DNA from: an uncultured virus (IMG/VR IMGVR_UViG_3300044490_000560)
Lineage: Duplodnaviria > Heunggongvirae > Uroviricota > Caudoviricetes
Virus record (IMG/VR): IMGVR_UViG_3300044490_000560
Reading direction: 5' to 3' (one strand)
DNA length: 23,826 bases
Below the pieces are notes generated by a model. The model was given only the letters and a program-made list of their open reading frames with translations. It had not been told where the DNA came from and made no database searches. The first letter of the stretch is position 1, and each line of letters starts with the position of its first letter. The position numbers and the translations under genes are program-made. Positions 6,565 to 23,826 of this stretch are shown piece by piece.

Positions 6565-9078
6565 CTACGAGTTCCCCCACGGCCGTCGCGGCGCAATAAA
6601 CAGGTCGGTCGCACCGGCTGGTGCCGTCAGCATGTCATTTGGGTTCAACGTCCCGTCATCCTGAATGTACACTTTCCATTGCTTGACCTGAACGACCCGC
6701 ACGATGTGGTACGCTTCAGACTCGAACTGCCGGGTCAACTGGCTGTTGAACCCGTCATACCCACCCTCGTACATCTGTTCGCCAGTCCGCAGCCCGAACC
6801 CGCGCGCCGTGCGGTAGTACACCAGATTCCGCGTGAACCAACGCTGCCGGTTCGACGCCCCTTGCGGGTCGGATACGACTGCGGAATCAACAACCGCCAG
6901 GCGATCCGACGCGTCCGCCCAGGCCGCGGAAATCGTGCCCACCTGCGCAGGGGTGGCCGTAATCTCACCGTCCAACAGCCCGTTCCGATTCAACCGGACG
7001 CTCAGCTCGTTCGTGTTATCCGGATCCAAAGCGTTGAGCAAAACCTGCAAGCCGCCCAACGTCTGGTTATAGAAGATCGTCCGCGTCACCGTGCGCCCGC
7101 GGCTCGTGATCGTCACAACGTGGGTCGCCGCGACTGGTGTTTCCGTCGTGGTCGTCACCTCCAGCAGATTCCCGTTCGTCTTCCGGCCGGCCTTCGTCAC
7201 CAAAACGCCCGCCTCCGAGAGCGAAGCCACAAGCGGCGTTCCGACTGGCTGTCCCGCATCGACCTGTACGGCCCGCGACCCCAGAGCCGTCACTTCGTTC
7301 TCAAGCGTCGCAGCTGAAACAGCTTGTTCCTCAACGGTCCGGGTCGTCACGTCCAGCAACCCACCGTCCGTCTTCTGACCGACCTTAGTGACGACCACAC
7401 CGCCAGTGGCCGCAGGGACCGCCAGGCTCGTATTGGCGGGCTGGTTGCGATCGAGCACAGTCGTCTCAACCTGAAAGATCGTCTTCGCGCCGGACTTCTG
7501 TGCCTCTAACACGGACCGCTCCGTCACAGTCCGTGTCGTCACGTCCATCAGACCGCCGTCCGTCTTTTGGCCTGTCTTCGTGATGATCACGCCACCCGAG
7601 GCGACCTGCGGCGACACGTCCACCGGCGCCTGCCCGCGGTCCAATACGGTCGATTCGACGTGAAAGATCGTACCTGTCCCGGACCTCTGCGCCTCCAAAA
7701 CGGGTTGCTCCGTCACGGTCTTGGTCGTCACGTCCAGCAAACCGCCGTCAGTCTTTTGCCCGGCCTTAGTGACGACCGCGCCGCCAGAAGCCGCCGGTAC
7801 CGTCAAGTCCGTATTCGCCGGCTGACCACGATCCGTCACAACCGATTCAATCTGAAACACCGTCTTTGTGCCGGACTTCTGCGCCTCCAAGACGTTCTGC
7901 TCCGTCGTGGTCTTGGTCGTCACATCCAGCAAGCCGCCGTCGGTCTTTTGCCCAGCCTTGGCGACGACTACGCCACCCGTAGCCGCCGGCACCGTCAGAC
8001 TTGTGTTCGCAGGCTGGTGGCGATCCACCACGGCTTCTTCGGTCTGAAAGATCGTCTTCGTGCCGGACTTCTGCGCCTCCGAAACGGCTTGCTCCGTCGT
8101 GACGGTCTTGGAGGTCGTGTACCGGCCGCGCCCGCTCTGCGCGTTGATGATCGCCTCGTGCACCCCGCCGGAGGCCGCCACGGGGGCCGGGAGGGCCGCC
8201 ACCTGCCCGCGGTTCTGATGCGTCTCCGCGGCGATAAACAGCGTCCGCTCTTTCCGCACTTCCGCGTCCGACACCGCCTTCTCGGTCACCTTCTGCTGAG
8301 CCAGGTCGTGCGTGCAATCCTCGTTCATCCGCTTCCGCTGCGTCACTTCCACCCCAGCGGAAACCCCGACTGCCCAGGTCGTCACCGCATTGCCGAGATG
8401 GTCTGTCCCGTCCGGCCGGATCCGGGTGATGTCCAGCTCCTGGGTCGTCTCAAACGTCGTATTGGCCTGGGTGACTTCGCCCGTCGTCTGCGTCTTGGAC
8501 ACCGTGGTCGTCACGTAGTACGTGTACAACGCCGTCTCAGGATCGCGCGACAGACCGCCGATCCGCACCGTTGTGCCGGCCACCAACGCCGGCAGTTCCT
8601 CCACGGTCGGCGAATCCCACACGTACCGAATCGTCACCTGGGCCGCGCACGTGTCCTCAACCACCCCCTCTTCGGAGTCCACGGCGTCTGATAGCTGCCA
8701 GAAGACCGTAAACGTCCCATCCCCGGCCCGATGACCGGCTGGGGTAGAAGTGTCGCGCGCCCACCACGCGGCCCGGTGATACCACGTACCAGGAATACGC
8801 GCTCCGTTAGCCACCACGGACGAGATCGGCGACGAGTCCGCCAGCGCCTGAATGACCTCACGGAGAGCGTGCGCCGGACACCCGTGCGCGAAGAGCCGCA
8901 TCGACGCCGCGTGAAGCGTCCCCGGAATCGGATCCTCGCCCTCCTCCGGCACTTCCTCGGACGGAATCACCTTCCCGCCACGCAGGAACAGCATTTTCCA
9001 TGCGGCGCCGGTAATGAAAGCCGCGGCGGCGGTTTGCCGGGCTTCATCGGCCAAGATGTCCGGTGTTCCTGCGGGCAT
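6565..9078 (-). CDS. Thr/Val-rich 837-aa protein with tandem 63-64-aa repeats; possible tail or virion structural protein
   Basis: GGGAG RBS; repeated unit EQxVxEAQKSGTKTIFQ...GGVVVTKAGQKTDGGLLDVTTKT; immediately downstream of the terminase. Confidence 0.8.
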   Translation of the reverse strand: MPAGTPDILADEARQTAAAAFITGAAWKMLFLRGGKVIPSEEVPEEGEDPIPGTLHAASMRLFAHGCPAHALREVIQALADSSPISSVVANGARIPGTWYHRAAWWARDTSTPAGHRAGDGTFTVFWQLSDAVDSEEGVVEDTCAAQVTIRYVWDSPTVEELPALVAGTTVRIGGLSRDPETALYTYYVTTTVSKTQTTGEVTQANTTFETTQELDITRIRPDGTDHLGNAVTTWAVGVSAGVEVTQRKRMNEDCTHDLAQQKVTEKAVSDAEVRKERTLFIAAETHQNRGQVAALPAPVAASGGVHEAIINAQSGRGRYTTSKTVTTEQAVSEAQKSGTKTIFQTEEAVVDRHQPANTSLTVPAATGGVVVAKAGQKTDGGLLDVTTKTTTEQNVLEAQKSGTKTVFQIESVVTDRGQPANTDLTVPAASGGAVVTKAGQKTDGGLLDVTTKTVTEQPVLEAQRSGTGTIFHVESTVLDRGQAPVDVSPQVASGGVIITKTGQKTDGGLMDVTTRTVTERSVLEAQKSGAKTIFQVETTVLDRNQPANTSLAVPAATGGVVVTKVGQKTDGGLLDVTTRTVEEQAVSAATLENEVTALGSRAVQVDAGQPVGTPLVASLSEAGVLVTKAGRKTNGNLLEVTTTTETPVAATHVVTITSRGRTVTRTIFYNQTLGGLQVLLNALDPDNTNELSVRLNRNGLLDGEITATPAQVGTISAAWADASDRLAVVDSAVVSDPQGASNRQRWFTRNLVYYRTARGFGLRTGEQMYEGGYDGFNSQLTRQFESEAYHIVRVVQVKQWKVYIQDDGTLNPNDMLTAPAGATDLFIAPRRPWGNS
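7141..8283 (-). repeat. Intragenic tandem repeat, six units of 189-192 bp (four well conserved at 7330-8094)
   Basis: Unit starts on the minus strand at 8283, 8094, 7902, 7710, 7521 and 7329. Confidence 0.9.
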
Positions 9079-10952: not shown

Positions 10953-11231
10953 CTACACCTCGACCGCGGCGGGGATCTCGTCCGCGTCGAGAAACACCAG
11001 CCGCTCCTTGTTCACGACGACTTCCCGGTCGGGAAACGGCGGCACCAGGACGCGGTCGCCGGCGTTCAGCTCCCCGGTGTACCCGGCCGGCAAGGCCTTC
11101 ACGATGCCGATCCGCAACGCTGAACGGTCGACGCGGCCGCGCAGAAACAGGCCGTGGATCTGCTCCACGGGCGGCGGAATCAGCACCAGGATCCGCCCCA
11201 TCACGGGACGGATGTTGACATCAGCGGTCAT
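10953..11231 (-). CDS. groES: GroES/Cpn10-like co-chaperonin (92 aa)
   Basis: MTADVNIRPVMGRILV...GLFL...GIVKAL...LNAGDRVLV...EVVVNKERLVFLDADEIPAAVE follows the GroES pattern (NIRPLxDRVxV...GIVL...GxVxAV...VKxGDxV...ExxxxxESDILAIVE). ATG 11231 is ATGA-coupled. Confidence 0.8.
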   Translation of the reverse strand: MTADVNIRPVMGRILVLIPPPVEQIHGLFLRGRVDRSALRIGIVKALPAGYTGELNAGDRVLVPPFPDREVVVNKERLVFLDADEIPAAVEV

Positions 11232-12400
11232 TGCGCCTTCTTCCTGGCATTCAGCGAGAAGTGCCCGCGGTAACCGGCCTCCGGCGACCAGAGGAATGCC
11301 TCGCTGGCGCGCCAGTTCAGCACGAACCCGTTGTCGAAGTGCCACTTGTCGGCGGCTGTCAGGCACGGCAACGACCGCACCCGCACGCCCATCTCCTCGT
11401 TAAGCGGCATGCTGTCCCAGACCGTCGCGCGGTGGATGTGCCCGACGTGCCATTCGTGCCACGTCGTCGCCGCCCAGTCGTGGGGCCGTTCGCCGGCCAT
11501 CAGCGCGCCCAGCCGTTCCGGTTTCAGGCCCTTGCTGGCCAGGTGCGTCAGGCCCAGCAGCACCTTCCCGCACCGCCAGTACTTGCGGCTGATCGGGTCG
11601 GCGTCGATCCGGAGGTTCGGGTGGTTGCGGAAGGCCAGGCGCATCGCCACGGCCAGATAGTAGTTGATGTCGCGGTCATGGTTGCCGGGCACGAACACCA
11701 GATCCACCGGCGCCACGGCCAGCAGCCGCTCGATGCCGCGGACCAGGGCGTAAGCGCCGACCTCGAAGATCTTGGCCGACCGGCCGTCCACGTCCAGTGG
11801 ATTCTCGGCGGTCGGCGTCGTGTTGCGCGCGTCGTTCACGTGGAAGAAGTCGTTCCCGATCGGAAGCAGCCAGCGCGTCACCCCGAACGGCGCCAACCAC
11901 GCCATGTGGTCCTCGAACGCGTGATCGTAGAACTGCTCGGCGATCCGCAGGTCGTAATCGTCCAGCGTCTCGCGGCGCCAGGACAGCTTGCCGAAGTGGT
12001 GGTCGTACAGCGCCAGCTCCACCACGTGCGGATCCTGGCAATGCCGGCGCGGCGCGGCCGGGAACTTCCGCGGCGAGAACTTCCGCAGGCGCTGCTCGAA
12101 CAGGTCGAACGCGTCCGAGATCGCCTCCGGCACCCGACGGCGCACCGTCACGGCCCAGACGTTGTTACGCACCTGCACCGGCTGCGAATGCCCGCGGCCC
12201 CGCTTGATGTTCAGCGTCATGTGCCACGAACCGGTCCGGACCTTCGTCACTTCCCAGATCGTGCGGTCCACGCCGGCCAGCCGCAGCGCCTCGTCGATCG
12301 TGATGGGGGTGGGAGAGACGACCCGGACCTCGCCGTTCTCCTGATTGAACGTCGCGTCCAACGCCATCTTAGGGGCTGCCAGATCCGTCAGCGTCGTCAT
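11228..12400 (-). CDS. Calcineurin-like metallophosphoesterase (390 aa), phage type
   Basis: Motifs D-H-H-F-G, GNDFFH, PGNHD, LTH and GHIH in canonical order; ATG 12400 with GGAG RBS. Confidence 0.88.
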   Translation of the reverse strand: MTTLTDLAAPKMALDATFNQENGEVRVVSPTPITIDEALRLAGVDRTIWEVTKVRTGSWHMTLNIKRGRGHSQPVQVRNNVWAVTVRRRVPEAISDAFDLFEQRLRKFSPRKFPAAPRRHCQDPHVVELALYDHHFGKLSWRRETLDDYDLRIAEQFYDHAFEDHMAWLAPFGVTRWLLPIGNDFFHVNDARNTTPTAENPLDVDGRSAKIFEVGAYALVRGIERLLAVAPVDLVFVPGNHDRDINYYLAVAMRLAFRNHPNLRIDADPISRKYWRCGKVLLGLTHLASKGLKPERLGALMAGERPHDWAATTWHEWHVGHIHRATVWDSMPLNEEMGVRVRSLPCLTAADKWHFDNGFVLNWRASEAFLWSPEAGYRGHFSLNARKKAQ

Positions 12401-14806: not shown

Positions 14807-16360
14807 CTACTTTCCGCGCAGGCTCACGCCGCGCAATTCACACGGTTCCGTCCCAGGGTACGTCACACGCAGCACGAGCGACGTCCCGGCCGTCGCGCTC
14901 GTGGCGGCGGCCCAGTAGCGCCGGGCGAAGGGATTGCCGGAACTCCCGCCCGTCGCCTGCGTCCACGTCGCCCCGTTGTCCACCGACACCCAGTTCGTGA
15001 GGCCGCTCAACGCATTCGTCGACTGCAGCCAGTAGCAGGCGACCACGTTGGAGACACCGAAGGCCGTGTAGTAGGGGGCGCTGCGGTACGTCCAGTTGGT
15101 TCCATCGCCCCGCAAGCCCACCGGACTCGTCGCCCAGTTCGCCGTTTCGAGCGTCCACGTTCCGCCATGCAGGCCCAACGTGTCGGCGACCGTCAGACCC
15201 GCCCCCTCATTCATCGCCCAATGACCCATCACGCCAGTCCACAGCGGATCCTGCGCGTCGTACGGCCGGCCGCGCCCGCCGCCGTACAGGTTCTGAATGT
15301 CCTTGGCCGTCAAGGCGCGGCGCCACATCGCCACATCATCCACTTCGCCGCCCATCACGTTGGCCAGATCGTCAGTGCGACCGATGATCCACTTCTGAAT
15401 CACGGAAACCGATGGGTTTCTCGCGCGATCCCGCGTAGAATTCACGGAGGCCAACCCGATACGCCGACCGTCGAAGTAGTAGTCCAATGAGAATGTGGCA
15501 CGGCAGAACACATACGCGCAATGATGCCAAGTCTCGCCACCATCCAGCCCCCACATCTCAGCACCGCCCTGCGTTGTCCCGCCGTTCAGATAGTACATCG
15601 CCTGATTCCCATCCAGCCCGTGCAGCATGGGCATCAGCCCAGGCCCCCAGTCGCCGAAAATCACTCCGCCGGTATCGCCTGCATTCTCCCGGCTGGCGGA
15701 ACTGGCCAACGGACACCCGTAGGTCAAGCCGATGTGCGCAGCCGGAACTCGCAACCAAAACGACACGGTACACTCTTCGTTGGTGAGGTCAAGCAGCGTG
15801 TCGGTGTATGGAATGTCGATCGAATGGGTCCCCAACCCGTCGAAGGCCGCACACGACCCAATCGCGTTGGTGTAGTTCACCATGCCGAACCGGCCGCAGT
15901 ACACAAGCCCCGTCGTGCCGGACGCATCCACGATCGAATCTTCAACGCCGGCGTCGATCCAGCCGTCCGGGAGTTTCAGCACAGGCTCAGACACCGTGCG
16001 CCAGAACTGCTCAGCCTCCGTCATGGAGGCGACGACAAACGGCGTCGTGGCCTGCACGGCGGCCTTCCATTCGGCGCGCCACACGGTACCACTGGAGCCA
16101 AGCTCCGATGTACCCTCCGCGCGCCAGACCGCGCCGCTTCCACCGAGGGTGGAGCCGACGAGGTTCGTGACGTAGTCGTACGTGGGACGCCCCAGGATGC
16201 CGTTGATCACCCACTTGAGCGCGGCGAAACCGTGCGGATCCGCCGTCGTCCAGACCTTGGCGCTCTTCGGGGCATACGGCAGATCGGCGGGCGGATCCGC
16301 CCGCCCGACCGCCGAAAGGCCCAGAACACCCATCACCATCGCTGCCATGATCCGCTTCAT
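14807..16360 (-). CDS. Signal-peptide protein with LamG/concanavalin A-like jelly-roll domain (517 aa); candidate adhesin or receptor-binding protein
   Basis: GGAGGAG RBS; TVSFWLR...WHHCAYVF...YFDG...IIG...GEVDDVAMWRRALTAKDIQNLY...GHWAMNEG is the LamG_3 pattern. Confidence 0.85.
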   Translation of the reverse strand: MKRIMAAMVMGVLGLSAVGRADPPADLPYAPKSAKVWTTADPHGFAALKWVINGILGRPTYDYVTNLVGSTLGGSGAVWRAEGTSELGSSGTVWRAEWKAAVQATTPFVVASMTEAEQFWRTVSEPVLKLPDGWIDAGVEDSIVDASGTTGLVYCGRFGMVNYTNAIGSCAAFDGLGTHSIDIPYTDTLLDLTNEECTVSFWLRVPAAHIGLTYGCPLASSASRENAGDTGGVIFGDWGPGLMPMLHGLDGNQAMYYLNGGTTQGGAEMWGLDGGETWHHCAYVFCRATFSLDYYFDGRRIGLASVNSTRDRARNPSVSVIQKWIIGRTDDLANVMGGEVDDVAMWRRALTAKDIQNLYGGGRGRPYDAQDPLWTGVMGHWAMNEGAGLTVADTLGLHGGTWTLETANWATSPVGLRGDGTNWTYRSAPYYTAFGVSNVVACYWLQSTNALSGLTNWVSVDNGATWTQATGGSSGNPFARRYWAAATSATAGTSLVLRVTYPGTEPCELRGVSLRGK

Positions 16361-16374
16361 TGTCTCTCCTCCGT

Positions 16375-17403
16375 TTACGGTGTGGACGGTACAGGAAGCC
16401 CATACGCCTGGTAATGAAGATCCGACGACACCAGGTCGATCGCCCCGCCGGTATCCGCCGCGTCATTGCCCAGTCTCGACAGTCTCCACCGCAGCACGCT
16501 GGAAAAGGTCTTGCCCGTGCCTGAAAGCCCCTCAGCCGGAATCGTCACGATCCTGTGCCGGAACTGCGTGCCGACCAGGTCGACGTTGGTGACGGTGACG
16601 GACGTGCTCGCGGGGAAGACGCCGCCGATATTCGCCCACGAATAAACGAACTGCCAGACCGATGTGTTCGGCCCGGCCGTATGGTTCTGCTTGTGGAAGT
16701 GCGGATAGACGACCGTGTTGGACACCCACGCATGCGGCAACTGCCACTCCGACCCCGCCACGGTCGTGCCATCGGCGGAAAAGCGCAGCGCGATCTGGTC
16801 GCTTGACGGCCCCGAGTCGATCTCGAACGATGCGGCAGCCGGTTGGCCGGGCAGGTTCATGCCGCTCGGGGTGATCCGCAGATCCTCCCAGCGATTGGAC
16901 GAAGAGACGTTGCCGTTGTCGCCGATCACGATCGAGCTCAGCCCCACAGTATCGTTCGTCCACGATTTCGGCAGCCGCGCCTCCGCGTTCGTATAGGCGT
17001 TCGTCGCGCCGGCCTGCCATTCCGCACGCCACACGGTACCACTGGAGCCGAGCTCCGAGGTACCCTCCGCACGCCACACGGTACCACTGGAGCCGAGCTC
17101 CGAGGTACCCTCCGCACGCCACACGGTACCACTGGCGCCGAGCTCCGCGGTCCCTTCGGCGCGCCACACGGCGCCGCTCGCGCCGAGGGCGGACGCATTG
17201 AGGTTGGAGGCCGCGGCATACGTGGGCCGACCCAGGATCCCGTTGATCACCCACTTGAGGGCCGCGAAGCCATGAGGGTCCGCCGCCGTCCAGACCTTGG
17301 CGCTCTTCGGGGCAAACGGCAGATCGGCGGGCGGATCCGCCCGCCCGCCCGCCGCGAGACTCAGCACGCCCGCCAACACTGATAACCTCCATGCGTTCTT
17401 CAT
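16375..17403 (-). CDS. Signal-peptide protein (342 aa) sharing its N-terminal module with the LamG protein
   Basis: MKNAWRLSVLAGVLSLAAGGRA-DPPADLPFAPKSAKVW...; 15-aa repeats; different beta-rich C-terminal domain. Confidence 0.82.
   Translation of the reverse strand: MKNAWRLSVLAGVLSLAAGGRADPPADLPFAPKSAKVWTAADPHGFAALKWVINGILGRPTYAAASNLNASALGASGAVWRAEGTAELGASGTVWRAEGTSELGSSGTVWRAEGTSELGSSGTVWRAEWQAGATNAYTNAEARLPKSWTNDTVGLSSIVIGDNGNVSSSNRWEDLRITPSGMNLPGQPAAASFEIDSGPSSDQIALRFSADGTTVAGSEWQLPHAWVSNTVVYPHFHKQNHTAGPNTSVWQFVYSWANIGGVFPASTSVTVTNVDLVGTQFRHRIVTIPAEGLSGTGKTFSSVLRWRLSRLGNDAADTGGAIDLVSSDLHYQAYGLPVPSTP
17021..17188 (-). repeat. 45-bp tandem repeat (~3.7 copies) encoding LGSSGTVWRAEGTSE
   Basis: Units start at 17021, 17066, 17111 and 17156 (first two identical). 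About two copies occur in the paralog at ~16071-16148. Confidence 0.92.
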
Positions 17404-17446
17404 GAAAAGGCCTCTTCGACCCATCCCGAAGCGACGTAACGGCGGT

Positions 17447-18637: not shown

Positions 18638-18904
18638 TTAATGCCCTGCGCCGGCGCCTCCGGCGGGTCCGACACTCGTCAGGCCCGTATCGTATGGCTG
18701 GAGAAGCTCCCAAAACCGGTGTACCTCCCCCTCGTCCAGCTGAATCCGCATCACGATATGCGTCGGCTGACTGAGCCCGTCAACGCTGGAGGAGAGAACC
18801 CGGGCCTGGGTCTGACAGATCGCGTCCAGGAGCGCGAAGCTGGAGGCTTTCGTGAGCCGCCACGGGGTCTGTTCACCGATCGAGAGGACTACTGCGGTAG
18901 ACAT
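18638..18904 (-). CDS. Hypothetical protein (88 aa)
   Basis: AAAGG RBS; tiles with neighbouring minus-strand genes. Confidence 0.65.
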   Translation of the reverse strand: MSTAVVLSIGEQTPWRLTKASSFALLDAICQTQARVLSSSVDGLSQPTHIVMRIQLDEGEVHRFWELLQPYDTGLTSVGPAGGAGAGH

Positions 18905-18948
18905 TGCCTGCCTTTCTGTGTATCAGCCGTTACTCGGCCGCTCGGCAA

Positions 18949-19233
18949 TCATACGTACCCCATCTTCTCCAGGATGGCCAGAGCGACGCGCAGCTCTCCG
19001 TGAGAGATGTTGTCTTGAATACCCCGCCCAAAAGCAAAAGTGTCGCTGCACTCAACATCGGAGTACTGATCTCGGATCGTCCGCGCCTTCCTGACGAAGT
19101 CCAACAGGAGGGGCGACAGCTTGGTGACTGGAACCTCGGCCGGTTGGGCGGCGGCAGACGCGGGCGTCGAATCGCGACGGCGGGCCAGAATCTCGATCCG
19201 GTCCAAGATGACGTTCAGTTCATTCGGCTTCAT
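18949..19233 (-). CDS. Hypothetical protein (94 aa), first gene of the leftward arm
   Basis: Purine-rich RBS (GAAAGGAAAGAAAGGG) before ATG 19233, just downstream of a promoter-like site. Confidence 0.75.
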   Translation of the reverse strand: MKPNELNVILDRIEILARRRDSTPASAAAQPAEVPVTKLSPLLLDFVRKARTIRDQYSDVECSDTFAFGRGIQDNISHGELRVALAILEKMGYV

Positions 19234-19262
19234 GTGAGACCCTTTCTTTCCTTTCACCGCGC

Positions 19263-19291
19263 ATAGTACCACGCCGGCCCGCCCCGCGCAA
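19263..19291 (-). promoter_or_regulatory. Putative sigma70-type leftward promoter
   Basis: Minus strand TTGCGC-N17-TACTAT with TGG extended -10 and an A-rich stretch upstream. Confidence 0.65.
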
Positions 19292-19442
19292 CGACTATTT
19301 TCGGGCGAAGAGGGGGGGGGCCCGCCGGCCCGGCTCTTTAATCTTAGACGCCTGGTATCGTTGGCAAAGCCGGTGAAAAGTCTGCACGAAACGTACTTTC
19401 AGGAAAAAGGGTTCCTACTCTCTCTCGTCGTGACCCGAACAG

Positions 19443-19531
19443 CCCCACCCGCCCACCACGTATCGAGAAGAGAAAACACAGCCTTCTGCACACAACAACG
19501 TGTGTACAACAACTCACAGAGGAGACAGTCC
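19443..19531 (+). repeat. Cassette leader element, partial copy 0 (lacks the first hairpin)
   Basis: C-rich tract, gaaaacacagccttctgcacacaacaacgtgtgtacaacaa, then RBS; nearly identical to the 3' part of copy 1. Confidence 0.9.
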
Positions 19532-19999
19532 ATGAAGGACATGCTGTGCATCAACGCTGAGCAGTGTGGTGACGACGTGGTCATCGTGCATGATGGCGAC
19601 GTGCAGATCACTCTCATGAATGGCCAAAGCGTGACGCTCTTGGCCATCCACTGCACGGGAACGCTGCGGCTCCGCGCGATCCCCGGCCCCCACGACGCCC
19701 TCATCAACGTCCACGTGGAGGTTCAGTGCGGCGCACTGGTCCTAGAGAACAGCGTCTGGCTCGAAGTCTGGTCGCTCACCCTCCATTCGCCAATCCCGCC
19801 AGATTGGCGCGTCGAGATGGAGCGCATTCAGCAGGCCGGAGATGCGGCGGTGTTCATCCACCCGCCCGCCCCGCAGCAGCGCATCATGGTCGAGGACGCG
19901 CTCGTGCTGTCGCCCTGGCCGGTGCAGCTGCCGCCCAAGCCGTCCGATCCGTGCCCCGCTGTTCCGGAAGAGCGCGTGAACGACGCCGCGCCGTTCTGA
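19532..19999 (+). CDS. Cassette gene A, hypothetical protein (155 aa, MKDMLCINAEQCGDD...)
   Basis: GAGGAG RBS; paralog of gene B; ends NDAAPF. Confidence 0.85.
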   Translation: MKDMLCINAEQCGDDVVIVHDGDVQITLMNGQSVTLLAIHCTGTLRLRAIPGPHDALINVHVEVQCGALVLENSVWLEVWSLTLHSPIPPDWRVEMERIQQAGDAAVFIHPPAPQQRIMVEDALVLSPWPVQLPPKPSDPCPAVPEERVNDAAPF

Positions 20000-20015
20000 T
20001 CCACACATCCCATGC

Positions 20016-20154
20016 GCAGCCACGTCCGCAAGGGCGTGGCTGCCTTCGGCCTTTGACCTGACGAACCCCGCCCACCCACCACGTTTGGAAAAGGGAAAAC
20101 ACAGCCTTTTGCACACAACAACGTGTGTACAACAACTCACAGAGGAGACAGTCC
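20016..20154 (+). repeat. Cassette leader element, full copy 1 (139 bp)
   Basis: Hairpin GCAGCCACGTCC-GCAA-GGGCGTGGCTGC at 20016-20043, C-rich tract, AAACACA-N5-TTGC, hairpin TGCACAC-AACAAC-GTGTGTA, RBS. Confidence 0.95.
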
Positions 20155-20949
20155 ATGAAGGACATGCTGTGCATCAACGCTGAGCAGTGTGGTGACGACG
20201 TGGTCATCATCCATGATGGCGACGTGGAGATCAACCTCAGCACCGGGGCCACCCTGGTTCTCAAGGCCATCGTGTGCACAGGCACACTGCGGTTCCGCTC
20301 CCGCCACAGCGCGGAAGACAGCTACCTCGACGTGCTTCGCGACGTCACGTGCTACGCACTGGAGATGAGCGACAGCTCCCCGATGGCGATCAGCATCGGT
20401 GGGTCGCTCTGTCTGCACACTGCACTCCCGCGTGATTGGCGCGCCGATCCGTGTCGCTGTGAAGAGAGCGGTGATGCGGCGATGTTCATCACGCCGCCCA
20501 CGCCGCAGCAGCACATCCTGGTCGAGGGCACACTCACGCTGTCGCCCTGGGCGGTGCAGTTGCCTGCGCAGCTCGCGGGCCAACCTTGCCCGCACTGCTG
20601 CGCCCCGATCCAGGGCGACGGCATCTACACGCCGTTCCACTGCCCGCTCGTTCCTGTGCCGGATGGCGCGGCTGCTGACGCCGTCGTGCTCAACAGCTCC
20701 GAACGGTCGAGCGTGCAGGTTCGGCTCACTGGCAGCGGCTTCGTCTTCGAGTTCATCAAGCCGAACGGTGAGATCGCCGTATGCGTCTCGCTCGCCACGG
20801 TCCTGAACGGGCCGTCTCTCGCGATGATCGAGTCGCCGGATGCCATGCGCGATCTGTCGCAGGCTCTCACCGCCTGGTGCGCCCAAGCCGCCCACGAGGC
20901 GCAGCACACGAACCGCCAGTCGAACGACGCAGAGGAACTGCCGTTCTGA
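20155..20949 (+). CDS. Cassette gene B, hypothetical protein (264 aa): gene A-like domain, CPHC module, unique C-terminus
   Basis: GAGGAG RBS; first 18 codons identical to gene A; ends NDAEELPF. Confidence 0.85.
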   Translation: MKDMLCINAEQCGDDVVIIHDGDVEINLSTGATLVLKAIVCTGTLRFRSRHSAEDSYLDVLRDVTCYALEMSDSSPMAISIGGSLCLHTALPRDWRADPCRCEESGDAAMFITPPTPQQHILVEGTLTLSPWAVQLPAQLAGQPCPHCCAPIQGDGIYTPFHCPLVPVPDGAAADAVVLNSSERSSVQVRLTGSGFVFEFIKPNGEIAVCVSLATVLNGPSLAMIESPDAMRDLSQALTAWCAQAAHEAQHTNRQSNDAEELPF

Positions 20950-20957
20950 TCCCACGT

Positions 20958-21094
20958 GCAGCCACGTCCGCAAGGACGTGGCTGCCTTCAGCCTTTGACC
21001 TGACGAACCCCGCCCACCCACCACGTTTGGAGAAGGGAAAACACAGCCTTTTGCACACAACAACGTGTGTACAACAAGGAGAGGAGTCTGTCCT
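20958..21094 (+). repeat. Cassette leader element, full copy 2 (137 bp)
   Basis: Same element; near-identity with copy 3 continues into the coding sequence to 21180. Confidence 0.95.
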
Positions 21095-21589
21095 ATGAGT
21101 ACCAGTCTTGACAGCTGTCCGCACTGTGGTGGACACCTGATCGGTGATGGTCACACCGACGTCGTGCACTGCGAGAACGTGACGCCGTGCGGTAACGAGA
21201 AACCGGATGCGGCGCCGCTCGTCAAAGCCGTCCACCATACGCGGTGCTACACCTGCTTGCGATGGCACACCTGCCCGCCCTGCCTGCGCGGCACGCCGCA
21301 CGACGAGGATCCCGATCAGCCCCACTGCTATCGGGACATCCCGGCCGCGGCCCTGCCGAGCGCCTACCCGTGGTCGCCGAAACCGGATGCCAACCCCATC
21401 GCACCGCGCTCCTGCGAGGAGTGCAACCAGCGCCGGCAGGGGTGCAAGTGGCGTGGTGGGTTCATCAACGGAGTGCTCGTTCCGCCACCGCCGGAGAGCC
21501 TCTCATGCTTCCTCTGCGCCGAACGGGAGCAGTGCTTCTGCGCCGACGATCCGTACAACACGGACGGCGATTGCCTCGCCAGCAAGTAG
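21095..21589 (+). CDS. Cassette gene C, multi-CxxC (probable zinc-binding) protein (164 aa)
   Basis: GAGGAG RBS; MSTSLDSCPHCGGHLIGDGHTDVVHCENV; further CYTC, CPPC, CEEC and CFLC motifs. Confidence 0.85.
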   Translation: MSTSLDSCPHCGGHLIGDGHTDVVHCENVTPCGNEKPDAAPLVKAVHHTRCYTCLRWHTCPPCLRGTPHDEDPDQPHCYRDIPAAALPSAYPWSPKPDANPIAPRSCEECNQRRQGCKWRGGFINGVLVPPPPESLSCFLCAEREQCFCADDPYNTDGDCLASK

Positions 21590-21611
21590 GGCGTCAGCGC
21601 GTAAGGCCTCA

Positions 21612-21748
21612 GCAGCCACGTCCGCAAGGGCGTGGCTGCCTTCAGCCTTTGACCTGACGAACCCCGCCCACCCACCACGTTTGGAGAAGGGAAAACACAG
21701 CCTTTTGCACACAACAACGTGTGCACAACAAGGAGAGGAGTCTGTCCT
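21612..21748 (+). repeat. Cassette leader element, full copy 3 (137 bp)
   Basis: Two mismatches to copy 2 across the 223 bp compared (20958-21180 versus 21612-21834). Confidence 0.95.
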
Positions 21749-22432
21749 ATGAGTACCAGTCTTGACAGCTGTCCGCACTGTGGTGGACACCTGATCGGTG
21801 ATGGTCACACCGACGTCGTGCACTGCGAGAACGTAGAGCCACGCGGTGACGAGGAGCCGTATGCGGCGCCGCTCGTCAAGCCCGAGCACCACTCCCCGTG
21901 CTACTCGTGCTCCGAGCGGCCCGAGCCGCGCGGTACGCTTCCGATCTCGGCGCCCGCCGGGTCAGTCACACCCGCGCCCAAGCCCGAAGCGATTGAGCGT
22001 GAGCTGCACCGCCTCTTCGGCGTGTCCAGGCTTCAGGCCATCGCAGAAGGCTTCTGCGTGGATTGTCTGCAGCCGGCTGTGCGGTTCGCTGACGGTCTGT
22101 CGGTGCAAGAGTATGCCATCTCCGGGCTGTGCCAAGCGTGCCAGGACGCGGTCTTCTCGGAGTGCGCTTGCTGCGAGCACGCCGTTGAGCGGGAACTCCC
22201 ACTCGCCGAAGGCGCCGTGCCGTGCACACGCTGCGGCGAATGCTGTCGCGTGGCCTCCTGCGGGCATGCCCCGTACGACGAAGTCGCGAAGCGCTGCTCG
22301 GCGCTCGTTACCCTGGGCAGCGGGAGCACACGTTGCGCTCTCTACTCCCAGATCCTGCAGAAGCCGCCGATCGCCTGGCACATGTCGCCAGCCTTCGGGG
22401 CTGGGTGCTGCCGGCGCGCGGCACGTACGTAA
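21749..22432 (+). CDS. Cassette gene D, multi-module Cys-rich protein (227 aa)
   Basis: Same N-terminus as gene C; middle CVDC...EYAISGLCQACQD module; C-terminal CTRCGECC...C...C (CxxCxxCC/YkgJ-like) module. Confidence 0.85.
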   Translation: MSTSLDSCPHCGGHLIGDGHTDVVHCENVEPRGDEEPYAAPLVKPEHHSPCYSCSERPEPRGTLPISAPAGSVTPAPKPEAIERELHRLFGVSRLQAIAEGFCVDCLQPAVRFADGLSVQEYAISGLCQACQDAVFSECACCEHAVERELPLAEGAVPCTRCGECCRVASCGHAPYDEVAKRCSALVTLGSGSTRCALYSQILQKPPIAWHMSPAFGAGCCRRAART

Positions 22433-22448
22433 CTCACGTAACTCACGC

Positions 22449-22481
22449 GCAGCCACGTCCGCAAGGGCGTGGCTGCTTTTT
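22449..22481 (+). terminator. Intrinsic terminator; fourth copy of the GCAA hairpin
   Basis: GCAGCCACGTCC-GCAA-GGGCGTGGCTGC directly followed by TTTTT, 16 nt after the gene D stop. Confidence 0.8.
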
Positions 22482-22584
22482 CAGAGCCCGGACCGGACGC
22501 GCCCCATCCCAGCCCACCCACTGCCCGTCACATCACCACTGCCCGTTCATACCGTCTCGCCGTGCCCGCGCCACCCATGAGCAA

Positions 22585-22618
22585 AAACACACCCTCTTGC
22601 ACCGCCCGATGCGGTGCA
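22585..22618 (+). promoter_or_regulatory. Diverged leader motif: AAACACA-N5-TTGC plus hairpin
   Basis: AAACACA-CCCTC-TTGC, then stem TGCACCGC-CCGAT-GCGGTGCA, upstream of the 22699 gene. Confidence 0.55.
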
Positions 22619-22698
22619 CGGCGGCGTTCGGCGCGCAGACGCGTGCCAGACGTTACGACCGGCCGCAATTCGCGGCTGCGCCGTTGAGGAGTACTCCG

Positions 22699-23418
22699 AT
22701 GAATGCGAACCGTGTGACGTTCCTGCAGACGGCCGTGCTGACGAATCTGTTCGTCGAGCTGTTGCCCCGTAAGGTGTGGCGGCAGCTGGCGGCGGAGAAG
22801 AAGGCGCCGCGCATGTTCTACAGCGTCAAGGGCGATCTGATCGCTGGCGATCAGGTGGTCCATGCCGAGCTGGAGCTCAACGCGCTCGATCCCAAGGGCG
22901 CGCTGCAGGCCATCGGCATCGAGCGCCCCTCACTGCGCGACGGCAAGGTGCTGCACGTGCTGCCCACCGACGCCCGTTCCCACGCCATCGTGCTGGCGGT
23001 GGAGACGGTGACGGGGGCGGACGGCCAGCCCGAGATCCGCACGAAGGTGGATGCCAAGGGGCTTCCCGTGCCGATCGAAGCCGTGGCGCTGCCGGCCGAT
23101 GCCGTGAACGATCAGGGCGACGTGGTGCCGTGGAGCATCGCGCACTGCTGCAAGTACCGCGTGAGCATCGACGGCTCGAAGGCGCTGCAGCTCACGGACG
23201 TGCAGCTGTCCTACGCCGATGCGTTCACGAGCAGCGGCCACCCGTGCGCGAGCGTCGTGCCCAAGGGCGTCGCCGTCGTGGATGCCCCGGCGCGCATCGG
23301 TGCCAGCGGCGGTCCGGCGAACTTCTTCGCCCTGATCGGCGCGTCGGGCGGCTACCAGGCGGCGGCGCGCCGCACCGCGGCCGCGGCCCCGGCGACGATG
23401 GAGTCGTCTCCGGCGTGA
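22699..23418 (+). CDS. Hypothetical protein (239 aa, MNANRVTFLQTAVL...)
   Basis: GAGGAG RBS; strongly GC3-biased codons; beta-rich body with Ala-rich tail; no family recognised. Confidence 0.85.
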   Translation: MNANRVTFLQTAVLTNLFVELLPRKVWRQLAAEKKAPRMFYSVKGDLIAGDQVVHAELELNALDPKGALQAIGIERPSLRDGKVLHVLPTDARSHAIVLAVETVTGADGQPEIRTKVDAKGLPVPIEAVALPADAVNDQGDVVPWSIAHCCKYRVSIDGSKALQLTDVQLSYADAFTSSGHPCASVVPKGVAVVDAPARIGASGGPANFFALIGASGGYQAAARRTAAAAPATMESSPA

Positions 23419-23431
23419 TCGCACCAGTCGT

Positions 23432-23516
23432 CCCGCGCCCGCCCCCGGGGCGCGGGGTGGCGTCCGGTTCGAAACACATCCGTTTGCTCCGGCCACGCCC
23501 GCCCCGGCGTGGCCGG
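23432..23516 (+). other. Two GC-rich hairpins with similar C-rich loops
   Basis: CCCGCGCCC-GCCCCCG-GGGCGCGGG (23432-23456) and CCGGCCACGCC-CGCCCC-GGCGTGGCCGG (23489-23516); no U-tracts. Confidence 0.6.
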
Positions 23517-23826
23517 GGCCAATTCTAGGGGCGACCCGGGCGAGCGCCTGACACCATGGGAGCAACGCTACGACGCTCCCAGCGACCACAGCGCCCAAGA
23601 AACACAGCCTCTTGCCACGCCAGGCGAACAACCAGTAAATCGGAACGCCGACGCGTGTAGACCCCCGAGCCGCGCGCCCTGTCGACAGGGCCACCATAAG
23701 CGACTCAGCTACGTCACCCGCCCTGACACGACCGCCAAGGCCCTTGCTGGGACCGCGGGATCGACTGGACATCGTCACGTCGTGACGAAGAACTGACGAA
23801 GCAGGGGGCCCCGCCACGTGAGGAAA

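Follow-up and report, generated by a model that had tools for sequence, protein, structure and literature searches.

Coliphage N4 injects a giant virion RNA polymerase (RNAP) of the T7 fold, whose hairpin promoters lie near the genome end that enters first. In Thermus phage P23-45, the virion RNAP gp96 is a two-barrel polymerase inside a protein of more than 5,000 residues, recognisable only by its DxDGD motif and first assigned from motif conservation, while AT-rich pre-early promoters and a brief conserved motif found at numerous early starts close to the left end were assigned by chromatin immunoprecipitation and transcription start site mapping (10.1101/2022.12.01.518664). Here we describe a repeated signal, AAACACAnnCnnnnG, in a 23,826-nucleotide stretch of an uncultured member of the Caudoviricetes (IMG/VR record IMGVR_UViG_3300044490_000560). 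This stretch, termed the window, corresponds to C1:62001-85826, the terminal part of an 85,826-base virus record whose ends overlap by 127 bases (85.7-kb genome). The genome is labelled G000; C1 coordinates refer to the whole record and all others to the window. Judged from the sequence, it is fairly probable that AAACACAnnCnnnnG constitutes a compact early promoter, extending from -14 to +1, which is probably read by a predicted two-barrel RNAP in a 5,856-residue protein.

A strand-restricted signal with a predicted transcription start

The - strand of G000 carries the structural genes, including a terminase match (phrog_2, E 2e-5), in a late arm of 47 kb. The + strand carries small early genes, a helicase, an exonuclease and DNA polymerase A in an early/replication arm of 38 kb, which starts at 19.4 kb of the window and wraps through the start of the record. 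The pattern AAACACA-N5-YTGC matches seven times in the window, always on the + strand (shuffled sequences: mean 0.52, largest 3), confirming, at the positions given, the seven co-oriented copies listed in a first-pass annotation; in the left 19 kb, where that annotation had noticed none, no match precedes position 19474 even when one mismatch is allowed. Copies 1-4 reside inside duplicated cassettes (repeat families D2, D3 and D9), so the window represents about four independent contexts, and copies 5-7 have unrelated flanks, as the annotation had proposed for the last three. Genome-wide, AAACACA occurs 15 times (seven copies in the window, eight outside), exclusively on the + strand of the early/replication arm, with counts of 0, 0 and 0 in the other three strand/arm compartments and an expectation of 1-2.6 per strand under Markov models. 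It is the top-ranked 7-mer of the genome for strand asymmetry (P 1.7e-10). Background scatter over both strands, the outcome that the annotation had named as speaking against a signal, was not seen.

All 15 AAACACA copies (13/13 unique contexts) present a C at offset 9 and a G at offset 14, and the invariant part is AAACACA-nn-C-nnnn-G within a full signal, AAACACAnnCnnnnG, of 15 bases. Among the eight copies outside the window, six have a relaxed YTGC element; in a held-out test, the six AAACACA sites that fail YTGC all keep C9 and G14 (P about 1e-6). Spacer positions 2-3 are CC in 7/7 window copies. The invariance of C9 and G14 indicates one signal rather than two half-sites with a free spacer, and the bipartite motif with a free 5-nt spacer, as first proposed, holds only in part. 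No conserved column was observed within 12 nt upstream of -14. Twelve of the 15 copies are intergenic, the remaining three lying inside genes, two of them near gene ends. When viral contigs were scanned with the pattern, five single matches were obtained; the three records checked hold one each, and these were treated as chance. A C-rich tract, CCCCGCCCACCCACCAC, is found about 30 nt upstream of copies 1-4 (19444, 20067, 21009 and 21663); its template strand is rich in G-runs, and the tracts lie within duplicated units and are not independent.

In six of the seven window copies, the T or G of TGC is the first base of a stem of 6-14 bp, bearing out the hairpins reported earlier, and the copy at 23600 has a stem of only 3-4 bp. 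Stems of at least 6 bp starting at the G are present at 4/13 unique sites against a background of 5.9% (P 0.006), or at 3/12 independent sites when a duplicated pair is counted once (P 0.03); most copies outside the window lack a stem at this position. The last motif copy leads into a long near-perfect hairpin at C1:24529-24566, whose first base is the G of that copy or lies directly behind it. At 12 sites a start codon bearing a Shine-Dalgarno (SD) sequence follows the G by 17-123 nt, the distances being only 17 nt at C1:22236 and 22 nt at C1:14817, too short to fit a -10 box downstream or a start much beyond the G. An assignment of YTGC as a -35 box was rejected, as the transcript of C1:14817 and of C1:22236 would then begin downstream of the start codon. 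Because the G opens stems and can be followed by a start codon after only 17 nt, the G at offset 14 is likely the +1 position.

No sigma70-type site, with the consensus TTGACA-17-TATAAT, was found on the + strand between 17000 and 23826. The sigma54 consensus is GG-N10-GC; GG is absent from every motif copy and Sigma54_DBD from the genome, in agreement with the earlier view that the motif fits neither sigma class. In contrast, a divergent site that faces the leftward genes matches an extended -10 sigma70-like promoter by consensus, suggesting that these are served by an ordinary host sigma. A further sigma70-like site, identified by eye at about C1:14745-14770, faces the primase gene (C1:12167-14704, - strand within the + arm) and stands back to back with the motif copy at C1:14817. 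Of the functions initially offered for the motif, that of a promoter is supported by the restriction to one strand and region, by the position before SD-bearing genes and by the candidate polymerase described below. An operator, a recombination site or a DNA-entry signal fits worse, since the motif is not a palindrome, its copies all point the same way and its distance to the likely +1 G is fixed. We regard it as highly likely that the motif is a promoter.

A candidate polymerase within the giant protein

The 5,856-residue protein (G000:C1:34155-51725, - strand) contains one DxDGD motif. Four reference single-chain two-barrel enzymes (P23-45 gp64, P23-45 gp96, TSP4 and phi14:2 gp66) display an R-x-P element followed, 38-39 residues later, by TGxDxDxD. 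When a two-block profile built only from these enzymes was run against all six genomic reading frames, the top rank for both blocks fell within the giant protein, in the correct order and 71 residues apart (score of 39.3; next 14.5; maximum of 200 shuffles 26.2). The corresponding motifs, R-x-P (R2692, P2694) and G-x-D-x-D-x-D (G2765, D2767, D2769, D2771), belong to the 51 invariant positions among 490 ungapped columns in an alignment of six sequences (27-33% identity), the five homologues of which had been found independently of the motif. R-x-P and a DxDxD-type loop are present in G000 and in 12/12 homologues, two of which read DxDWD, and 3/5 homologues score above their own shuffles in the two-block test. 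The catalytic loop is located 47-52% along the protein. For the second barrel, which in two-barrel polymerases bears two catalytic lysines, a conserved K/G near 2277-2279 and invariant K2325 and K2339 were observed, with no profile match to known DPBB-B. The nearest named cluster in ESM features is PF05183 RdRP at 0.76, a lead only, and an ESM search with a 1,101-residue piece retrieved unnamed viral clusters at <0.8.

Searches for another enzyme gave no candidate. No sigma or RNAP family was matched among 77 open reading frames (ORFs) in Pfam and PHROG, nor was a T7-type polymerase, and the T7-type motifs are missing from the giant protein; genome-level family scans returned 0 matches to RdRP, Rpb1_2 and Sigma54_DBD. 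The PDB sequence search revealed nothing relevant, and BLASTP against gp64 (best E 0.89) detected no whole-domain similarity. The search of the rest of the genome suggested by the first-pass annotation thus yielded a candidate polymerase and no sigma family. Based on the conservation of the catalytic motifs, the giant protein is predicted probably to hold a two-barrel RNAP in its middle.

Eight relative records were obtained from an alignment of distant capsid homologues, of which seven were fetched and one (G279, 29 kb) was left out; G281 (52 kb) was used for its protein only, leaving six near-complete relatives (G276, G277, G278, G280, G282 and G283). All seven fetched relatives are syntenic with G000 as far as they reach and encode a 6.2-7.4k-residue orthologue in which R-x-P-S and G-x-D-x-D-G-D are present. 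Among the relatives, G283 has the most divergent catalytic segment; it contains five copies of TTTATTT(T/C)ATCCTnnnYTGC within 2.5 kb and 0 on the other strand; their flanks are unrelated (22-38% identity), four of them precede its first SD-bearing + genes, and most of their stems at the G are short, with lengths of 4, 7, 4, 2 and 3 bp. Placed in register, the G283 and G000 motifs have A-10, five variable bases and YT|GC in common. In G276, the first + gene is preceded by ATC-N5-CTGC in three tandem copies, representing one event, while simple de novo searches found no comparable cluster in G277, G278, G280 and G282. The loose pattern ATC/ACA-N5-YTGC is not enriched in the relatives, except in G283 and in the tandem copies of G276. 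Each of the six near-complete relatives has three or more near-consensus sigma70 sites (TTGAC..TATAAT-type) in its + arm. G000 presents only three poor matches there, with motif copies in the replication module instead. In G276, G277, G280, G282 and G283, the replication module includes a common family of strong sigma70-type sites (TTGACnCC...TG.TATAAT/TACAAT). In G278 the terminase match (G278:C1:82991-85921) falls into two parts with about 1 kb between them, possibly an intron or intein.

Proposed mechanism, rival readings and known systems

In the proposed mechanism, the giant protein would be packed in the particle and enter the cell together with the DNA, of which the cassette-bearing end, probably a terminal repeat, would go in first. 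The polymerase would bind the A/C-rich block at -14 to -8, the pyrimidine-rich stretch would be melted and RNA would start at the invariant G, so that a hairpin formed from +1 could shield the 5' end and a downstream hairpin could terminate or stabilise each short transcript. Weaker copies further along may drive the replication genes, where the six relatives have textbook sigma70 promoters instead, and the host enzyme would probably serve the leftward genes. Several observations weigh against this interpretation. The G000 motif was found in 0/8 relatives, and a comparable cluster in 1/6 near-complete relatives (plus the tandem look-alikes of G276), although the orthologue is present in all; 3/15 motif copies are intragenic. 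No Pfam, PHROG, PDB or fold-level match supports a polymerase: a plain hidden Markov model, split by an insertion, was not significant (E 3.1), the best hhalign match is the catalytic loop but is weak (E 0.009-0.12), and two AlphaFold models reached pLDDT values of 35 and 38, with two Foldseek searches returning no match. The catalytic loop of G000 includes an unusual Arg (DRDGD), and the two-block scores of the two DxDWD homologues are no higher than those of shuffles. The virion location of the giant protein is deduced from gene position, and no common motif was found in the early transcripts of phi14:2 (10.1101/2020.03.07.982082).

An alternative is that the promoter starts at the same G and is read by host RNAP with an alternative host sigma, or with a small unrecognised phage sigma or activator. 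The positional evidence suits any promoter, the layout CAC..N5..TTGC resembles that of sigma54, and an unusual host sigma is possible; many small + arm ORFs without a family match could accommodate a phage factor. However, copy 1 must fire before any phage protein exists, and no sigma Pfam match was present among the 77 ORFs, nor Sigma54_DBD in the genome. No column is conserved within 12 nt upstream of -14, and the pattern occurs at background in 61 bacterial genomes (493 matches versus 520 for the control, 130 Mb). These genomes represent the order of a metagenome-assembled genome (MAG) holding a homologue of the giant protein, an order that need not be that of the host and is a weak host proxy; one putative-capsid homologue is named from a Planctomycetes MAG. 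The seven pattern matches of MAG G004 are located on ordinary bacterial contigs, and searches of G004 for the capsid, the terminase and the polymerase region gave no match, making it a weak host proxy. Reading by host RNAP, which would in addition leave the candidate phage polymerase without a promoter, is considered unlikely.

The strict co-orientation, the stems that begin at the G in 6/7 window copies and the lack of a U tail in the hairpins of cassettes 1-3 would also suit an RNA-level signal, in which a long early transcript is processed just before the G, or antiterminated, to give hairpin-protected mRNAs. Such a transcript would require a promoter upstream of copy 1, where no other + strand promoter was found, and would have to pass the T5 terminator preceding copy 5; most copies outside the window also lack a stem at the G. 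We therefore hold this explanation to be very improbable indeed. It is likewise very improbable that the motif has no part in initiation and is an operator, a stoperator or a site of recombination or DNA entry: the clustering near the probable genome end, the three intragenic copies and a diverged relative with cassette-skipping joints (run X4, below) speak for it, whereas the non-palindromic site, its fixed geometry to SD-start codons, its absence from the late arm and its substitution for the sigma70 promoters of relatives do not, and repeats of 100-300 nt without the motif account for cassette shuffling. The promoter read by a phage two-barrel RNAP remains the preferred reading.

In comparison with N4, the candidate enzyme would differ from the T7-type fold, and the G000 stem starts at the predicted +1, in contrast with the N4 hairpin, which is upstream of +1 in the template. 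The closest resemblance is to P23-45: both phages have a two-barrel polymerase (predicted in G000) in a giant protein, an early motif near the entering end (deduced from depth in G000), a long terminal repeat (2,735 bp in P23-45, probable in G000) and a repeated terminator motif, and the catalytic segments align by eye and by profile. In contrast, gp96 is the tail tape measure with an N-terminal polymerase, whereas the predicted G000 domain lies mid-protein in an unrelated protein that matches no tape measure family in Pfam or PHROG; no second, non-virion polymerase was found in G000, and its motif differs in sequence and reaches into replication genes. The system of G000 would work like that of P23-45 and is not a member of it, given the location of the domain and the lack of a second polymerase. 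Phage phi14:2, which is crAss-like, also encodes a single-chain two-barrel virion enzyme, gp66, in a giant gene adjoining the structural module on the strand opposite to the early genes, and its middle genes use host sigma70-type promoters, as in the relatives of G000 (10.1101/2020.03.07.982082); gp66 differs in its DFDID motif and its length of 2,180 residues and gives no significant profile match. The late promoter of the AR9 non-virion RNAP, A-11 ACA-N6-TA/G+1, parallels the G000 motif in register (A-10 C-9 A-8, T-1 in 9/13, G+1), but G000 has C at -11, a longer block to -14 and an early rather than late role, and the AR9 enzyme is multisubunit, has a sigma-like subunit and needs uracil DNA (PMC7598289); the likeness is probably convergence. 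The PeSL cassettes of T4-type phages are similarly repeated, shuffling-prone promoter and stem-loop units around small non-essential early genes, with promoters that, unlike those proposed for G000, are sigma70-like and host-read (PMC2839356).

Genome context and implications

Each of the first five motif copies heads one SD-bearing gene, and four cassette genes are closed by the same 12-bp hairpin, with a T5 tail only on the fourth (Table 1).

Table 1. Coordinates of the signal copies and associated features (window positions unless marked C1)
Feature	Position	Strand	Remarks
Motif copy 1	19474..19489	+	Predicted +1 G 19488; first + arm element, just inside depth step
Motif copy 2	20097..20112	+	Predicted +1 G 20111
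Motif copy 3	21039..21054	+	Predicted +1 G 21053
Motif copy 4	21693..21708	+	Predicted +1 G 21707
Motif copy 5	22585..22600	+	Predicted +1 G 22599; independent flanks
Motif copy 6	23472..23487	+	Predicted +1 G 23486; independent flanks; no SD-bearing ORF within 340 nt
Motif copy 7	23600..23615	+	Predicted +1 G 23614; independent flanks; weak stem only
AAACACA copies outside window	C1:1224, 5490, 10233, 14817, 16890, 18861, 22236, 24515	+	Genome scan
Predicted 5'-terminal hairpin, 6 bp	19488..19505	+	Repeated at 20111-20128, 21053-21070, 21707-21724
Predicted 5'-terminal hairpin, 8 bp	22598..22618	+	From T before +1
Predicted 5'-terminal hairpin, 14 bp	23486..23519	+	
Cassette gene 1	19532..19999	+	155 aa; SD AGAGGAG; no family match
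Cassette gene 2	20155..20949	+	264 aa; N-terminal paralogue of gene 1; no family match
Cassette gene 3	21095..21589	+	164 aa; Cys-rich
Cassette gene 4	21749..22432	+	227 aa; Cys-rich; start common with gene 3; match to phrog_19722, a family of unknown function
Cassette gene 5	22699..23418	+	239 aa; no family match
Terminator-like 12-bp hairpin, cassette 1	20016..20043	+	Weak U tail
Terminator-like hairpin, cassette 2	20958..20985	+	
Terminator-like hairpin, cassette 3	21612..21639	+	
Terminator-like hairpin, cassette 4	22449..22476	+	T5 tail
Divergent sigma70-like extended -10 site	19263..19291	-	TTGCGC-17-TGgTACTAT; faces leftward genes; consensus match only
Region of raised contig depth	19450..23826	.	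~2x versus upstream flank; probable long terminal repeat; continues past window end

Copies 6 and 7 (23472-23826) have no SD-bearing ORF within 200 nt, and their products may be small RNAs. Bacterial SSB ends in an acidic C-terminal tip; the paralogous products of cassette genes 1 and 2 have acidic tails closing with Pro-Phe (..NDAAPF and ..DAEELPF) and are possible mimics of it. In run X4, a diverged relative across 18698-22448 (depth 8-14) presents joints that skip cassettes (19617 to 20251, 20295 to 22448, 20565 to 22444; 85% likeness, one run only, between-letters mostly unknown), hinting at cassette loss or shuffling.

Contig depth, which is no copy number, was compared in six well-covered lake-water runs (X1-X6), which may stem from one campaign; X7 was too sparse. 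It rises about twofold between 19.4 and 19.55 kb in 6/6 runs (X1, 8.1 to 14.5-19.1; X2, 38 to 70-89; X3, 8-10 to 19.5-29.6; X4, 34-41 to 66-77; X5, 24-32 to 48-67; X6, 12-16 to 28-36). The raised depth persists to the window end in X3-X6, and long contigs extending several kb further have lower mean depth (X1 9.4, X2 41.1). The region is a probable long terminal repeat of about 5 kb, preferred over a second phage because the ratio is constant across a fivefold depth range; the step possibly reflects a pac site. With either, copy 1 would lie near the first-entering end. At C1:about 750-1250, in an AT-rich non-coding segment, AAAAAGTCCGTTTG and its complement form an inverted repeat that flanks a G/AT-rich core; the segment is a candidate for an origin or for the terminal repeat's right end.

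In the late arm, no common word was found on the - strand that could represent a promoter. Other genes of the window encode an 837-residue protein with five internal repeats of 64 residues (6565-9078; D1, D6 and D7), a Cpn10-like protein (10953-11366) and a LamG-domain protein (14807-16360) whose N-terminus is common with that of 16375-17424. The portal and capsid labels are based on position and conservation, without family matches. The putative capsid protein is matched by 178 environmental proteins; no deposited phage matches it or the polymerase region, and no paper on this phage family or motif was found in the literature.

The overall strategy, a phage-encoded virion polymerase with its own early promoters, is already known, and how single-chain two-barrel phage polymerases recognise their promoters is still mostly unsettled. 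One genome has here yielded both a sharp consensus of 15 bases, with its +1 predicted, and a candidate domain with set limits, which makes a cell-free assay of the pair possible without culturing the phage; if the assignment is true, a new phage polymerase family gains a testable promoter. More tentatively, and with rather more doubt than confidence, this widespread, uncultured phage family may represent an undescribed class of sigma-free virion two-barrel RNAP, located mid-protein (5.4-7.4k residues), whose promoters share a geometry (a 7-mer ending at -8, five bases and a YT|GC start) with a 7-mer that varies with the enzyme (AAACACA here, TTTTATC in G283), the replication genes having been taken over from the host in G000. 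If a changing 7-mer within a fixed geometry is true, the family would provide a natural set of orthogonal polymerase-promoter pairs.

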